From positions 1-53,316 of the forward strand of contig JBBSYC010000010.1 in NCBI GenBank assembly GCA_038045445.1: a stretch of 53,316 bases of DNA, written 5' to 3'. The notes under the pieces are model-generated. The model had not been told where the DNA came from and made no database searches. It saw only the letters and a list, made by a program, of their open reading frames with translations. Position numbers and translations under genes: made by a program. Shown here piece by piece: positions 5,663 through 16,913 of this stretch (its first letter is position 1; the number at the start of each line of letters is the position of its first letter). Origin of the DNA: Nanobdellota archaeon (GTDB lineage: Archaea > Nanobdellota > Nanobdellia > Pacearchaeales > GW2011-AR1).

Positions 5663-5818
5663 CCTCCGATAGCTCAACGGTAGAGCGCGCGGCTGTAGGA
5701 TAGCGCAGACATTTCCCTTCCTTGGGAAAAAGTATGAAGCGCAATAAGAATGGTTTCGTTAGAAATCATTGGTTCATGTAGAACCCGCGTTACCCAAGTT
5801 CGACTCTTGGTCGGGGGA
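5663..5818 (+). tRNA. tRNA-Tyr(GTA) with an 85-nt intron (5699-5783)
   Basis: Acceptor CCTCCGA/TCGGGGG (C1-G72), anticodon GTA at 5695-5697, stem CGCGG/CCGCG, T-arm CCAAG-TTCGACT-CTTGG. BHB motif: CTGT/GTAG helix between bulges AG^G and AA^C, at the canonical 37/38 position. Confidence 0.92.
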
Positions 5819-12128: not shown

Positions 12129-13061
12129 ATGCTAGGAAAAGCGGGATTTTTTAAAGCAATAACTATAATTTTTCTCTTCATAGCCATAGGCTTCTGTGCA
12201 TACTATATCTATCAAAACTTTCCGAGAGAAGCAATCCAGTTAAAAACAATTCAAATAAAAGAACCTTCAATAAATAACAGCATCCCAAGTAAACAATTTT
12301 ATGACAACATGAGATATCAAGACAGAATAATAAATTATAACATAGCTGAATCTTGCGCTGAAAACAAAAAAAGTTTAATGGAAGAAGCATTTAGAATAAT
12401 AGAATCAAAAACAATACTTTCTTTTAAAACTGTATCAAAACCAAATTCCGTGCTAAATATCCTTTGCGCAGATATAGCTCCTGAAGCTGGTGAAGAGAAT
12501 CATTTCGTTGCAGGGGAAGGAGGTCCTTCAAAAGTCTTGAATGTTACGCTATACTCTGTAATTCTTGAAGGCAAAATTGCATTGTATAGGGAAGGTTCCT
12601 GCAACAATGCAAATGTACCCCTACACGAACTTCTTCATGCGCTGGGTTTTGACCACAATAACAATAAAAAAAGCATACTCTACCCCATATTAGAATGTGA
12701 TCAAGAAATAGATGAAGAAATAATTAACAGCATAAATAAACTTTACAAAATAGATTCACTTCCAGAACTAAAATTTGACGCCGTAAGTGCAACAAAAAGT
12801 GGAAGATACCTAAACTTTCATATGGAAGTATCAAACCAAGGATTAATTCAAGCAGATAATGTAATAGTTAATCTTTATGCAGAAGAAAATTTTGTAGAAT
12901 CATTCGACTTAAAAACAATAGGTATTGGTGCAAAGAAAATAATAGATGTAGAAAATCTAAAAGTTCCACTGGGTGCAAAATCAATAAAACTTGTCATAGA
13001 TAATGATGATGAAATAAGAGAGATATATGAAGATAATAATGAAATTGTGTTAAATACTTAA
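12129..13061 (+). CDS. Membrane-anchored metzincin-type zinc protease with a C-terminal CARDB/Ig-like domain
   Basis: HELLHALGFDH; C-terminal V.N.G...ID....I.E..E.NN pattern. Confidence 0.85.
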   Translation: MLGKAGFFKAITIIFLFIAIGFCAYYIYQNFPREAIQLKTIQIKEPSINNSIPSKQFYDNMRYQDRIINYNIAESCAENKKSLMEEAFRIIESKTILSFKTVSKPNSVLNILCADIAPEAGEENHFVAGEGGPSKVLNVTLYSVILEGKIALYREGSCNNANVPLHELLHALGFDHNNNKKSILYPILECDQEIDEEIINSINKLYKIDSLPELKFDAVSATKSGRYLNFHMEVSNQGLIQADNVIVNLYAEENFVESFDLKTIGIGAKKIIDVENLKVPLGAKSIKLVIDNDDEIREIYEDNNEIVLNT

Positions 13062-13068
13062 AAAATAG

Positions 13069-13357
13069 ATGCGGGAGCTAGGATTACTTCAACAGCAATG
13101 TTGAAGTTCCAGATGACTTCAGTCAGCTAGGACGTTCGAATCCTTCAATTCAAGAAATGCGGGAGCTAGGATTAATTCAATTTCATTGAAATTGGATTTG
13201 CCAGAGCTTTTCAAAGCTATGAGCACTTCGAATCCTATTAGGTTTGATACGTTAGCTAGGATTCGAACACTTCAATTTGTTCAGTTAAAATTGAAGTCAC
13301 CGATAACATCAGTTAGCGTGTGCTTTCAACTCGTCAGAGTTGTAAAGGTGAGAATCT
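13069..13357. repeat. Tandem array of three structured units, each carrying a copy of the tRNA-Leu 3' end
   Basis: TGCGGGAGCTAGGATT at 13070 and 13158, a variant at 13248, and the tRNA itself at 13361. Each unit has two or three hairpins and ends in an inverted T-arm copy (TTCGAATCCT or GAGAATCT). Confidence 0.9.
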
Positions 13358-13360
13358 AAA

Positions 13361-13444
13361 TGCGGGAGCTAGGATTCGAACCTAGGTAAGCACTAAGCTA
13401 TCACGGCCTTAACGTGACCCATTTGACCACTCTGGCACCCCCGC
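13361..13444 (-). tRNA. tRNA-Leu(AAG)
   Basis: Acceptor GCGGGGG/CTCCCGC, discriminator A, perfect stem TCACG/CGTGA around loop TT-AAG-GC, long variable arm, T-arm CTAGG-TTCGAAT-CCTAG. Confidence 0.93.
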
Positions 13445-13520
13445 ACGAAAGTCTCAAATAAAATCACTTTAAAAGTGTTTGGACAAACGCTTTTATAACC
13501 TAATAAACACAAAACATTCT

Positions 13521-16500
13521 ATGTCAAAGGGTGATCAATCAAGGCTTCAAAGTTTACAAACGAATAGCGTAAAATTCTGGAAACCAAAAGAAACAGTAAT
13601 CCTTCCAGATGACTTCGAAGAATTGATGAATGGAAACACCACGCTAAAAACCTCAAGCAGTTTAAGTTTCTTAAAACAAGAAGAAATTCCTAAAACAGAA
13701 AATATCTTTAAAAGTGCAAACTGGGACCTTAATGATAAAAAAGGGAAAATATCTCCATTAACCTTCTCAAACAAAAAAACTCAAGAAGATGTAGTAAATG
13801 AAATATTAAACTTAATAAAAGAAGGAAATAAGATAATATTTCTTCACGGTGCTTGCGGAACAGGAAAATGCCTGGATAAAGAAACATTAATATTTTGTAA
13901 ACCTTATGGGAAGAAATGCTTTAGTTATTATAAAATATCCGATATTATAGATAAAGAAGGAGATATATTATCTTTAGATGAAAAAGGAAATATTGTTAGT
14001 TCTGAATTTAAAAATGTAAGAGAAACTGGAGTCAAAAAGTTATTCAAAATTAAAACAAGAAGTGGTCGAGAGATAATCGCTTCTGAAAACCATCCATTTT
14101 TAACAATAAACTCCAATGGAGTTTCATGGGAACAGTTAAACAAATTAAATAATAAATCTTATATCTGCCTACCTAATAATATTCATATTGAAAGTTCAGA
14201 AGATTTAAGCGATACTAAATTAAAAATTTTGGGCCATTTAATATCTGAGGGTAAGTTAGGAGACAAAGCAGGATCTCCAAAATATTATCAAGATAAAACA
14301 ATAACTCCATTAATTAGGCAAGATTATATTAATGCCTTAAAACAAGAGTTTCCTGATGGTCAAATAAAAGAGGATCATAAAACTGAAGTTAAAATTAATT
14401 TTAACAATAAAGATACAAGATTTGGAACCACAAATAAGCTAAGATTATTTATAAGAAAATTTGGTCTTGATGGCAAGAAATCAGCAGATAAATTTGTACC
14501 TGAAGAAATATTTAATTTATCTGAAAAAAAGATAGCTATATTTATTCAAGCCCTCTTTTCTGGCGACGGGTCTATTTATTTAAGAAAAAATAAACAAATA
14601 GGGATAGAATACAATTCAATCTCTAAAAGACTCATACAAGATGTATCAATATTACTTATTAGATTTGGTATACAATATACAATAACAGGTCACAAATTTA
14701 AAGAGAATCAAAACTATTCTTGGAGAATTACTATCTCAAATCATGAAAATATAAGAAAATATATAGAAAAAATAGGATTCTTAGGCGAAAAACAAGCATT
14801 AGCTTTATCCATATTATCCAAATGCAAAATTCACAAATTCACAAACATTGACAAAGTACCTAGAATAATTAGAGAATATCTAAAAAACAAAGGATATGAT
14901 TATAATGAGTTAGATCGAATGTTGAATTACGAAGAAATAGAAAAACTGAGGAGATATATTGGTTTTAAAAAAATAAAAAAGAATAAGTTAACTATTACTC
15001 CTCAAGTATTTAGGCAAGGCAAAATAGACTTTTTAAGAAGCCATATAAGAAAAGTTAATGAATATATAAAAGATGATACCTTATCATTGATATGCAACGA
15101 ACAAATATTGTGGGATAAAATAAAATCAATCGAATTATTAAAGGAAGATGTTACTTATGATTTAGAAGTTCCAAAAAGACACAATTTTATTGCAAACGGA
15201 ATAATAGTTCATAATTCAGCAATCGCATTAAACGTCGCCCGTAAATTAGGTAAATCTTCAGTGGTTGTTCCCGTAAAAGCTCTCCAAAAGCAATATGAAG
15301 AGGATTATACTGAAAATAAATTTCTTTATAAACCAAACGGTCAGAAAATGAAAATAGCAGTCTTGACTGGAAGAGAAAACCATGACTCAATAATAAATGA
15401 AGGAATATCCTGCGCAGATCCAGAACTACCAGAAAATATAAAGATAAGTGAAAAAAACTATGCAAAGATTGCAGATTATTTTAGGAATAATCCTTTCGTT
15501 TCGGGTCAAGACATTCCAGACTACAAAAACATAAGAAGGCTATCAATAGCCCCTTCAAACCCTTACTGGAGCCCCATAGTTCCATCAAGCTATGACTTAA
15601 ATCAACTAAAAGATGCAAAAAAGATAAAGTATGAAGGTTGTGATGGCAGAGAATATACGTTTTATCATAGAAAATCAGGATGTTCTTATTATGACCAATA
15701 TATAGCCTATAAAGATGCGGATGTTATAATCTTCAACGGGGCTAAATACAAGGCAGAGTTAGCTCTTGGAAGAAAACCTTCAACAGAAATAGAGATAATA
15801 GATGAAGCAGATGAATTTCTAGACAGCCTATTTCAGCAAGAAGAAATCAATCTTACGAGACTTGGAAACAGCTTATCAACAACAGCACCTGAAACTCCAA
15901 TCGCAAGAGAAACAATAAAAGAAATACTTGAAATAATCGGTTTGGAAGAACAAAACAAAAGAGCTCTAGGGATAGATGAGAATCAGATACATAATCTTGA
16001 CGAATCAAGAATAAAAAAAATATTTAAGTTGTTAATCAAAGACAAAGAGTTAGAATCAGAAATACTTGTAGATGAGAATAATTACGCAAATAAGGCCTTG
16101 GAGTTAGCCAGAAATCTTGAGGAGATGACTGAAGAAGTATATTTAACATACAGAAAAGAAGATGAAAATTTACATATTAAATTAGTAAGCACAAATCTCT
16201 CTCAAAAAATAAGTGAATTATTAGAAAAAAGTAAAGTTCTATTATTAATGTCTGGAACTCTTCATTCTCAATCAGTCATAAAAAATATATTTGGTTTAAA
16301 AGAATTCAAAATAGTTGAAGCTGAAACTCTTAATCAGGGGGGAATAGATATAGTAATGACTGGAAAAGAAAAAGATTGCAGATATTCAAATTTTTCAGAT
16401 GGACAACATTCAAGAAAGGAATATCTAGAAGCACTAAATCTGGCAGTCGAAAAAGCAAAAAAGCCTGTATTGATACATGTTAACGCATTTCAGGACCTTC

Positions 16501-16913
16501 CAAACGAAGATGAGAAATCAATGTACAAAATAGGCAACCTCATAACACAAGAATCATTAATAGAAATGCAAAGAGAAGATAAAACTGGAAAACTGGTAGC
16601 AATATTCAAACAAGGATTAAATGACAAGCTTTTCACTACAAAATGTTCTAGGGGCATAGACTTCCCTGGAAAAATGTGTAACTCAATAATTTTTACAAAA
16701 TATCCAAATCCAAATATTTCGGACACATTTTGGAAAATACTCCAAAAAACACATCCAGATCATTTCTGGGAATTTTACAGAGACAAAGCATATCGTGAGT
16801 TTTTACAAAGAATATATCGAGCAGTTCGTTCAAAAGATGACCACGCATATATTTTATCACCTGATTTAAGAGTAATACAATCAGTAAGAAAACTGCAAAA
16901 CGGACAGGTTTAA
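13521..16913 (+). CDS. SF2 helicase (DinG/Rad3-XPD-like) precursor containing an intein
   Basis: Spliced Walker A GACGTGK|S, DEAD, MSGTL, RGIDFPG, Q.I.R.VRS.DD; ATG 13521 preferred to TTG 13479. Confidence 0.85.
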   Translation: MSKGDQSRLQSLQTNSVKFWKPKETVILPDDFEELMNGNTTLKTSSSLSFLKQEEIPKTENIFKSANWDLNDKKGKISPLTFSNKKTQEDVVNEILNLIKEGNKIIFLHGACGTGKCLDKETLIFCKPYGKKCFSYYKISDIIDKEGDILSLDEKGNIVSSEFKNVRETGVKKLFKIKTRSGREIIASENHPFLTINSNGVSWEQLNKLNNKSYICLPNNIHIESSEDLSDTKLKILGHLISEGKLGDKAGSPKYYQDKTITPLIRQDYINALKQEFPDGQIKEDHKTEVKINFNNKDTRFGTTNKLRLFIRKFGLDGKKSADKFVPEEIFNLSEKKIAIFIQALFSGDGSIYLRKNKQIGIEYNSISKRLIQDVSILLIRFGIQYTITGHKFKENQNYSWRITISNHENIRKYIEKIGFLGEKQALALSILSKCKIHKFTNIDKVPRIIREYLKNKGYDYNELDRMLNYEEIEKLRRYIGFKKIKKNKLTITPQVFRQGKIDFLRSHIRKVNEYIKDDTLSLICNEQILWDKIKSIELLKEDVTYDLEVPKRHNFIANGIIVHNSAIALNVARKLGKSSVVVPVKALQKQYEEDYTENKFLYKPNGQKMKIAVLTGRENHDSIINEGISCADPELPENIKISEKNYAKIADYFRNNPFVSGQDIPDYKNIRRLSIAPSNPYWSPIVPSSYDLNQLKDAKKIKYEGCDGREYTFYHRKSGCSYYDQYIAYKDADVIIFNGAKYKAELALGRKPSTEIEIIDEADEFLDSLFQQEEINLTRLGNSLSTTAPETPIARETIKEILEIIGLEEQNKRALGIDENQIHNLDESRIKKIFKLLIKDKELESEILVDENNYANKALELARNLEEMTEEVYLTYRKEDENLHIKLVSTNLSQKISELLEKSKVLLLMSGTLHSQSVIKNIFGLKEFKIVEAETLNQGGIDIVMTGKEKDCRYSNFSDGQHSRKEYLEALNLAVEKAKKPVLIHVNAFQDLPNEDEKSMYKIGNLITQESLIEMQREDKTGKLVAIFKQGLNDKLFTTKCSRGIDFPGKMCNSIIFTKYPNPNISDTFWKILQKTHPDHFWEFYRDKAYREFLQRIYRAVRSKDDHAYILSPDLRVIQSVRKLQNGQV
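13869..15215 (+). mobile_element. Intein with LAGLIDADG homing endonuclease (449 aa)
   Basis: Begins CLDKET; block B ASENHPFL; LGHLISEG and ALFSGDG motifs; ends YDLEVP..HNFIANGIIVHN with Ser at +1. Confidence 0.95.

Follow-up and report, generated by a model that had tools for sequence, protein, structure and literature searches.

What are the three structured units that lie behind the tRNA-Leu(AAG) gene in a contig of a Nanobdellota archaeon? The stretch analysed here, further referred to as the window, is contig JBBSYC010000010.1 of assembly GCA_038045445.1 (53,316 nucleotides (nt), C10 in our numbering), and the genome to which it belongs has 980,512 bases in 29 contigs, about 33% G+C and a completeness of 91.75%. 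The window contains an intact tRNA-Leu(AAG) gene at 13360-13445 on the minus strand (ARAGORN; Rfam RF00005 match at 13361-13444, 50.3 bits). On the 3' side of this gene there are three units, each combining a copy of the gene from the T-loop to the 3'-end with two hairpins, P1 and the bulged P2. They measure 76-113 nt and contain no gene. A sequence-only reading of the window had noticed this array and had offered two explanations for it, a mobile element of about 80-110 bp integrating at the T-loop with recognition of a folded strand, or an array of small RNAs with a tRNA-complementary arm.

What is conserved and recurs is the P1+P2 core of about 50 nt; the rest of the 80-110-nt unit is tRNA-derived flank. 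The core forms a multi-copy family limited to one genus labelled Nanoarchaeota/'Pacearchaeota' and two sister genera. Its fold is kept by compensatory change, on one strand only. Where the core is linked to a tRNA gene, it lies between inverted and direct copies of the T-loop/T-stem sequence, and the direct copy ends exactly at the tRNA 3'-end. The units belong to a family of structured mini-elements of DPANN archaea that is new and well supported, and whose integration mechanism is possibly unusual.

A covarying core in one genus and two sister genera

Four copies of the tRNA-Leu(AAG) 3'-end, present as its reverse complement, were found by repeat search on the plus strand at positions 13069, 13157, 13247 and 13360, spaced by 88, 90 and 113 nt. 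In agreement with the sequence-only reading, each unit carries such a copy, matching the gene in 17/17, 17/17 and 18/21 positions, respectively. The P1 hairpins of all three units were recovered by the same kind of search as inverted repeats of 9 bp, 12 nt at 92% and 10 bp. Positions 12800-13311 are covered by Logan contigs from runs of three studies with no differing letter, and positions 13146-13435, that is, units 2 and 3 into the tRNA gene, are covered without differences by one contig from a fourth run, which shares its study with one of the three. The array is therefore unlikely to be an assembly artefact, since independent contigs agree completely. Two joints of low depth with skips of 195 and 264 nt were seen in one contig each, both from one run and with sides of 26-27 nt, and are too weak to be used.

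The array was compared by BLAST with 41 related genomes. Matches were obtained in 16 of them, namely the window's own genome, 14 of the 16 others of the genus and one from another genus, at 69-91% identity to the array; none came from the 16 genomes of other families of the order. The relatives follow tRNA-Gln, tRNA-Ser(GCT), tRNA-Met and tRNA-Leu genes, each with the 3'-end of its own tRNA. A covariance model (R1; 50 positions, 19 pairs) was then built from 20 aligned P1+P2 cores (alignment A1). At E<=0.01 it yielded 118 matches in 19/41 genomes, so that the search for homologues suggested by the sequence-only reading was productive. They are present in all 16 other genomes of the genus, in two of eight other genera of the family and in none of the 16 genomes from other families. 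The window's genome contains nine copies and the other genomes of the genus contain 1-17, the number reaching 17 in an assembly of about 0.5 Mb.

A degenerate pattern of the 28-nt P2 was searched in one genome for each of 185,579 GTDB species. It was found at ten loci, all of them in metagenome-assembled genomes of the genus, whose titles name Nanoarchaeota, Candidatus Pacearchaeota or Candidatus Woesearchaeota. In metagenome contigs the pattern gave 51 matches at 39 loci, and in viral contigs none, the pattern representing one P2 subfamily. Nothing matching the array was found in phage and plasmid collections. The Rfam scan of the window at gathering thresholds returned two tRNAs only, in line with the sequence-only reading, in which no named family was recognised; the scan of 12950-13500 at E<=10 returned the tRNA and three chance-level matches (E 3.3-7). 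A search of open-access literature under a limited set of terms found no description of such units.

On the plus strand units 1 and 2 fold (ViennaRNA) into a three-way junction composed of the closing stem AGGAUU/AAUCCU, P1 and P2, where P2 has a 3-bp stem and a 2-bp stem with a bulged 3' base between them, then an A.G or G.A mismatch and a capped stem. The folding energies equal -22.8 and -22.9 kcal/mol (z -2.34 and -2.39). In unit 3 the minimum free energy (MFE) structure of the plus strand favours another outer pairing (z -4.42), and on the minus strand (z -3.32) the fold shows P1 and P2 together with a third hairpin, closed by a 5-bp stem GAUUC/GAAUC. The three-way junction of units 1 and 2 is the one drawn in the sequence-only reading. 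Since both strands fold about equally well in the window alone, the strand can be called only on homologues.

For this purpose 117 of the model matches were re-aligned to the model, giving 107 distinct rows (alignment A2). Standard pairs occupy 95.3% of 1995 cells vs 75.0 +/- 0.6% after shuffling, a level reached in none of 500 shuffles, with the reservation that the alignment is fitted to the model, which somewhat inflates the number of paired cells. Both-sided changes are observed in 18 of the 19 pairs, related copies not being independent events. The covariation score is 0.561 compared to 0.201 after shuffling and at most 0.074 when the partners are slid by 1-3 columns. These values bear out the earlier suggestion that the structure is under selection. 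Further, there are 109 G.T cells vs 18 A.C cells, the P1 loop is GNRA in 39/106 distinct copies, and the MFE of the sense strand is below that of the antisense strand in 77/108. Because of this asymmetry, the fold is assigned to one strand of a single-stranded nucleic acid, RNA or single-stranded DNA alike; in the window it is the plus strand, which had been preferred from the start.

Two known motifs were considered and rejected. A K-turn or L7Ae site in P2 does not fit by inspection, as there is one bulged base and one mismatch instead of a 3-nt bulge with tandem G.A. The CTGAnGA-like string of unit 3, reminiscent of a hammerhead or another small ribozyme, is the loop of its third hairpin, and Rfam finds nothing there.

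The core also occurs away from tRNA genes. Three model matches are situated inside the RNase P RNA gene, antisense to it. In the alignment of this gene from ten genomes of the genus, three sites are empty, three contain exactly the core and nothing else, and four contain another two-hairpin insert; the window's genome is among the latter four. The empty site reads GAUGAAACG and then directly GGCGAC, and in the filled site the core stands directly 3' of the conserved GAUGAAACG junction with no duplication. A bare core can thus fill a site that is empty in a sister species. The RNase P RNA loci are L182 (G006:C5:11020-11354), L144:425-767 and L188, and, in the window's genome, G000:C14:3397-3754. 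According to the Rfam bacterial type A model, the two inserted hairpins are placed at P13 and P14. Two further matches of the model lie in the loop of another repeat hairpin ('S'), and four, with a variant second hairpin, in the loop of a third hairpin type. The core of about 50 nt thus has precise ends that recur from copy to copy and lacks terminal inverted repeats, and at the RNase P and hairpin-loop sites its target is not duplicated. Hence, of the mobile element of about 80-110 bp proposed initially, the dispersed family stands, and the recurrent part is shorter and is found also with no tRNA flank.

A second family of hairpin repeats (core CTCCGCAGTGAG...) was observed in tandem downstream of tRNA-Lys(CTT), tRNA-Ala(TGC) and tRNA-Lys(TTT); in the window's genome its copies occupy C11:1-233, C7:44500-44668, C23:2390-2446 and C1:137149-137194. 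Behind tRNA-Lys(TTT) the CTCCGCAGTGAG hairpin is followed by a 12-nt copy of the tRNA end. In two other genomes the CTCCGCAGTGAG repeats hold the P1+P2 core in their loop.

tRNA-derived flanks and the anatomy of the units

In total, 91 of the 118 model matches are located within 250 nt downstream of a tRNA gene called by ARAGORN, two are upstream of one, and 25 have no called tRNA nearby. By our reading, about ten of the last group lie at contig ends and carry tRNA-end flanks there, and two appear to be false positives. The tRNAs concerned represent 14 amino-acid identities: Leu (20), Ser and Arg (14 each), Gln (12), Ile (11), Met, Phe and Cys (4 each), Ala and His (2 each), and Thr, Gly, Trp and Pro (1 each). 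Copies thus lie behind other tRNAs with their cognate 3'-ends, which the sequence-only reading had proposed to check. In the window's genome, an extra copy of the last 13 nt (<=2 mismatches) is present within 400 nt downstream of 6/41 tRNA genes, introns being allowed in the calls; these are Leu(TAG), Ile(GAT), Lys(TTT), Leu(TAA), Leu(AAG) and Met(CAT). A seventh case, Ile(TAT), spans the junction of contigs C12 and C7.

The 91 tRNA-proximal copies fall into two classes by orientation relative to the tRNA, 52 antisense and 39 sense. In the antisense class, 42/52 copies have a 5' flank matching the last 16 nt of the neighbouring tRNA in reverse complement (<=2 mismatches), and 43/52 have 10 nt of its T-loop/T-stem as the 3' flank (<=1 mismatch); several of the exceptions are units of type A, described below for unit 3. 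In the sense class, the 3' flank contains 12 nt of the tRNA end (<=2 mismatches) in 34/39 copies, the 5' flank contains 8 nt of the T-loop (<=1 mismatch) in 32/39, and the order is inverted ~57-67, sense 54-60, core, 61-74. Here and below, tRNA positions follow the standard numbering and were assigned by us and not by a tool. The two tRNA-derived flanks can pair in both classes, rebuilding the T-loop/T-stem duplex with P1 and P2 branching at the junction. Complementarity to the tRNA equals 16-20 nt in the antisense class and about 7 nt in the sense class. The units do not represent halves of split or permuted tRNAs or alternative tRNA 3' halves, as the adjacent tRNAs are intact and the units have no acceptor 5' part, D arm or anticodon arm.

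Units 1 and 2 of the window have the same order on the fold-bearing (unit-sense, plus) strand, namely the reverse complement of 74-58, P1, P2, C or CG, sense 54-63/64 and a spacer of 9-12 nt. Unit 1 starts with the copy of tRNA positions 58-74 (13069-13085, minus strand in the tRNA orientation, 17/17; repeat search and sequence), followed by the core at 13086-13132 on the plus strand (P1 13086-13107 with the GCAA loop, P2 13108-13132; model R1, 55.2 bits, E 5.1e-11) and a plus-strand tail at 13133-13156, identified from repeats and the fold. The tail consists of CG, the sense copy of 54-63 (13135-13144), which closes the stem with 13080-13085, and a 12-nt spacer. In unit 2, the copy of 58-74 (13157-13173, minus strand, 17/17; repeat search) precedes the plus-strand core at 13174-13225 (P1 13174-13198 with a G.T wobble, P2 13199-13225; R1, 52.6 bits, E 2.2e-10), and the plus-strand tail at 13226-13246, again from repeats and the fold, includes C, the sense copy of 54-64 (13227-13237) and a 9-nt spacer. 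The closing stem AGGATT/AATCCT is thus built from both strands of tRNA positions 58-63, since the flanks of the units are copies of them.

Unit 3 has a different order: the reverse complement of 74-54 and a C come first, then P1, P2 and a third hairpin, and a conserved single-stranded stretch is followed by GAATC. Its tRNA copy (13247-13268, minus strand) covers positions 54-74 with 18/21 matches plus one C, being 86% identical to the gene copy over 22 nt in the repeat search. The three changes are clustered, and the copy extends deeper into the T-loop than those of units 1 and 2. The core occupies 13269-13322 on the plus strand (P1 13269-13297, P2 13298-13322; R1, 60.6 bits, E 2.4e-12). The plus-strand extension at 13323-13359 (further 'type A'), delineated from the fold, comprises the third hairpin at 13327-13342, the conserved single-stranded stretch and GAATC at 13352-13356, which corresponds to tRNA positions 57-61 and is able to pair with 13261-13265.

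Several observations suggest that the units move. The first unit behind tRNA-Leu(TAA) in contig C3 shares 99.0% identity with unit 3 over 102 nt, each being flanked by T-stem sequence of its own tRNA; the flanks of the C3 unit are the T-stem and acceptor sequence of tRNA-Leu(TAA). Homologues of unit 3 are located behind tRNA-Gln and tRNA-Ser(GCT) in two other genomes. An identical 28-nt P2 is present behind Ile, Trp, Leu(TAG), Gln and Leu(GAG) genes in both orientations and always with cognate flanks, and also beside His- and Arg-like tRNA-end flanks with no called tRNA gene. At one locus (L012) the unit behind tRNA-Gln has an inverted flank of the Leu type. The number of units at one tRNA varies between species: at the orthologous tRNA-Leu(AAG) locus there are three units in the window, and two identical units or one unit with an unrelated insert in relatives, while two further relatives retain remnant flanks with a core fragment in one case and a remnant flank only in the other. 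At L005 two identical 87-nt units stand in tandem. The flanks of the tRNA-Gln, tRNA-Ser and tRNA-Leu(CAA) loci were not alignable for the comparison of empty and filled sites. Gene conversion among existing units could mimic some of these signs.

Other insertions near tRNA genes were seen as well. Downstream of tRNA-Val(TAC) of the window's genome (C13:19273-20324, L042) there is an insert of about 930 nt that encodes a nucleotidyltransferase (PF01909) together with a HepT-like RNase (PF01934). Beyond the insert the 3' part of the tRNA is copied once more (22 nt exact by BLAST, about 35 nt by eye), so that the insert resembles an integrated toxin-antitoxin cassette or the remnant of an element. 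In another genome (L077, G011:C4:18928-21113) a chimeric tRNA-like gene begins as tRNA-Glu (promoter region and first ~22 nt) and continues as the 3' two-thirds of tRNA-Gln plus a unit. As this gene lies between two small open reading frames (ORFs; 206 and 101 aa), the stretch from tRNA-Gln to tRNA-Glu looks like a cassette array.

In the window, the array occupies the entire gap between tRNA-Leu(AAG) and the ORF at 12129-13061 (plus strand), which ends just 5' of it and encodes a matrixin-type metallopeptidase with CARDB domains (Pfam). On the other side the tRNA is adjoined by a 1144-aa ORF (13479-16913, plus strand), a helicase (Helicase_C_2) split by an intein with a LAGLIDADG domain (Pfam); by eye, the insertion point of the intein appears to be the P-loop. 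Elsewhere in the window tRNA-Tyr(GTA) (5663-5818, plus strand) contains an 85-nt intron (ARAGORN, introns allowed). Several other tRNAs of the genome have introns of 13-102 nt, and the number of tRNA calls is 32 without the intron mode and 41 with it.

Proposed insertion at the T-loop and rival explanations

We favour the explanation that the array consists of a miniature mobile module in three integrated copies, non-coding and defined by its structure, which would belong to a new family integrating at tRNA T-loops, and we give this explanation about even chances. Each unit would arise from a site-specific event at the T-loop, with the junction at 57/58 for units 1 and 2, 53/54 for unit 3 and 60/61 for the sense class. 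Such an event would spare the tRNA gene, displacing or duplicating its 3'-end, and the tandem array could be built by repeated events or unequal crossing-over. For instance, a circle of about 88 nt containing the 74-58 copy, the core, C, 54-64 and the spacer might recombine with the gene by one crossover at 57/58. On paper, this single crossover reproduces the observed order and the period of 88-90 nt; analogous crossovers could take place at 53/54 for type A and at 60/61 for the sense class. Moreover, the folded core-sense strand rebuilds the T-loop/T-stem duplex with P1 and P2 as branches, which makes recognition of the module in its folded single-stranded form probable. The folded strand would then be the substrate of a recombinase provided in trans, as in the case of the forked-hairpin attP(+) of CTXphi or the integron attC, and the flanks would be templated by the target. 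Integration at the T-loop with recognition of a folded strand, proposed in the sequence-only reading, appears to be the best mechanistic idea. We infer site-specific insertion at the T-loop, a module folding as a single strand and flanks templated by the target, and limit our commitment to these, because the plain att model leaves the cognate flanks and the bare-core insertions unexplained.

A number of results weigh against insertion at the T-loop as formulated here. A plain attP x attB exchange predicts that the tRNA inherits the element's copy of the 3'-end. Since nearly identical cores have fully cognate flanks on different tRNAs, target-templated copying or gene conversion of the core is needed in addition. 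The insertions in RNase P RNA and in hairpin loops consist of the core only with no duplication, and thus two modes of insertion would have to coexist. The two reservations about the alignment given above apply here as well. Nor could a recombinase or HUH nuclease, for which the sequence-only reading had proposed to look, be tied to the module. The window's genome has six Phage_integrase (tyrosine-recombinase) matches, five of them above the cut-off, and tblastn with these six ORFs found none in the array flanks, which cover 0.6-1.5 kb. In the same genome, 91.75% complete, there are no matches to Cas1 (PF01867), the integrase of casposon or CRISPR-type integration, and none to the Cas12f1/TnpB zinc ribbon or to IS110 DEDD and Transposase_20. 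Y1_Tnp is present in 10/41 genomes, six of the 17 genomes of the genus and four with no module, and the end hairpins of the IS200-like elements of the genus are unrelated to the module. The 14 Y1 loci show no association with tRNAs or the module, and the nhmmer profile of the unit finds nothing significant in them. Reverse transcriptase (RVT_1) is found in 17/41 genomes, nine of 17 within the genus and eight of 24 outside, with no correlation with the module. No excised form or junction was seen in assembled contigs.

Some of these enzymes were observed at particular places. The only Y1 frame of the window's genome (81 aa, C7:44366-44527) is the C-terminal part, truncated at the hairpin repeats behind tRNA-Ala, and complete Y1 (IS200/IS605) copies with typical end hairpins are present in five other genomes of the genus. 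The two RVT_1 ORFs of the window's genome are located at C13:39388-40020 and C11:50422-50841. At the metagenome loci there are two recombinase genes only, several kb from the module (L198, L223).

The units might instead be scars (attL/attR) of viral or plasmid elements carrying an integrase, amplified by unequal crossing-over and with interiors subjected to gene conversion, so that P1 and P2 are former attP arms. Direct repeats from the T-loop to the tRNA 3'-end are the classical signature of integration (PMC9897764), the genome has five or six tyrosine-recombinase ORFs, the tRNA-Val(TAC) insert of about 930 nt is followed by a further copy of the tRNA 3' part, and some arrays, such as the two 87-nt units of L005, are exact tandem duplicates. 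We nevertheless consider the scars unlikely. The interior boundaries are the same and precise in 118 copies, both orientations occur, no larger carrier of P1/P2 was found among viral contigs (searched with the pattern of one P2 subfamily), phages and plasmids and no integrase in the flanks of 0.6-1.5 kb. Moreover, the bare cores, those of the RNase P RNA gene as well as those of hairpin loops, have no att-like repeat, and strand-specific covariation is not expected for arm sites that are double-stranded. Plain models fall short as well: a plain staggered-cut target duplication accounts for the direct repeat and not for the inverted piece, and the plain attP x attB model accounts for only part of the flanks.

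A role at the RNA level has also to be considered. The units could be small structured RNA genes or processing signals, acting by pairing with the tRNA 3'-end, in trailer processing or termination, or in protein binding, and spread by duplication. The GNRA loops (39/106) and the G.U-type wobbles on one strand agree with this, as do the 16-20 nt complementary to the tRNA end in the antisense class and the retention of insert-bearing RNase P RNA in three species. Yet the fold strand is antisense to the tRNA in 52 copies, sense in 39 and antisense to RNase P RNA, so no single transcription logic fits; unit number at orthologous loci differs between species, and no Rfam family matches. Small RNAs with a tRNA-complementary arm, the second explanation of the sequence-only reading, do not generalise because the 39/91 sense copies lack the long arm and have only about 7 nt of complementarity. 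Thus an RNA role seems improbable to us. Still less credit is given to an intron-like or other RNA-level element that inserts by T-loop motifs of structured RNAs and is fixed via reverse transcription or recombination. The junctions fall within the T-loop, a region known to carry non-canonical introns in archaeal tRNAs, and the RNase P core stands exactly and with no duplication after the GAUGAAACG junction, located after P12 of RNase P RNA, which we take to be a T-loop motif. GNRA loops are frequent, and the window's genome has two reverse transcriptases. This is opposed by the absence of a bulge-helix-bulge motif or its relaxed HBh' form at the RNase P and tRNA-copy junctions on inspection and in folds, no dedicated scanner having been applied, by the position of the units in partial tRNA copies and not in working tRNA genes, by the antisense orientation of the core in RNase P RNA and by the lack of reverse transcriptase in 8/17 module-bearing genomes of the genus. 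We regard such an element as very improbable.

Within the favoured T-loop module, a bolder version is conceivable, which is tentative and on balance doubtful: single-stranded mini-elements of about 90 nt in DPANN archaea would mimic the T-loop/T-stem duplex, a host tyrosine recombinase would integrate them via single strand exchange, and the bare module would also enter T-loop-like junctions in other genes for structured RNAs, such as RNase P RNA. If so, archaea would have a tRNA-directed equivalent of CTXphi/Xer or integron attC recombination, with an element far smaller than any other of this kind.

Comparison with known systems

To our knowledge, very little information exists on the mobile DNA of DPANN archaea with genomes of about 1 Mb. 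An abundant, genus-wide, structure-defined family tied to tRNAs provides a tractable case for T-loops as recombination targets. It bears on whether folded-strand recombination exists in archaea and on how insertions enter genes of essential structured RNAs, the RNase P site being the place of bacterial P13/P14. The repeats also break assemblies, as the contig ends C12/C7 and C11/C23 overlap inside them; the start of C12 continues into the start of C7 behind tRNA-Ile(TAT), and the other pair is formed by the start of C11 and the end of C23. Partial tRNA copies are a documented source of mis-called tRNA genes (PMC9897764). The units may further serve as a ready marker of strain-level variation.

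Partial tRNA copies forming direct repeats are a known mark of integration, as described in PMC9897764. With tRNA integrative elements the module shares an intact tRNA with direct copies of its 3' part (T-loop to 3'-end), tandem occupancy and the presence of recombinases in the genome. Unlike them, it has an insert of 50-95 nt that is free of genes and an extra inverted T-loop/T-stem copy, occurs in both orientations with cognate flanks at tRNAs of at least 14 identities, and is found elsewhere as bare cores; an integrase gene in or beside the insert, typical of these elements, is absent from the 0.6-1.5 kb flanks.

In CTXphi and integrons, tyrosine recombinases use folded single strands as their substrate, and prophages of CTXphi can be arranged in tandem (PMC4246890). 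In both systems, according to PMC4246890, the substrate is a forked hairpin with a stem copying the target duplex, CTXphi for XerCD and attC for IntI. The module resembles the attP(+) of CTXphi and attC in its imperfect hairpins, prevalence of structure over sequence, strand specificity, bulged or mismatched bases, inverted arms rebuilding the target duplex, tandem arrays and an enzyme in trans, the last being proposed here (PMC4246890 for the known systems). It differs in its target, which is the tRNA T-loop and not dif or attI, in the archaeal host, in having no phage or cassette cargo and in that no recombinase is tied to it. Core boxes of the attC type (RYYYAAC/GTTRRRY) were looked for at the base of the module stem and none were seen.

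Like miniature inverted-repeat transposable elements (MITE), palindrome-associated transposable elements (PATE) and repetitive extragenic palindromes (REP), the module is of small size, contains no coding sequence, is present in many copies and is rich in hairpins; it has no terminal inverted repeats, its bare insertions lack target duplication, and Y1 transposases are present in some genomes of the genus. Flanks derived from tRNA are not characteristic of those elements. It is distinct from IS200/IS605-derived PATE and REP, as its hairpins differ from the ends of the resident IS200-like elements, the distribution of Y1 does not match, and there is no fixed target tetra- or pentanucleotide, the 5' flanks ending in ..ATT, ..AAT, ..AATC, ..AAAG, ..GAGC, ..CGCC and others. 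The 3'-end repeats of E. coli tyrT present a similar picture, with tandem units that lie downstream of a tRNA gene and each close with a copy of its 3'-end. Those repeats are confined to a single locus and are explained by unequal crossing-over, whereas the module is a dispersed covarying family that switches its tRNA partners.

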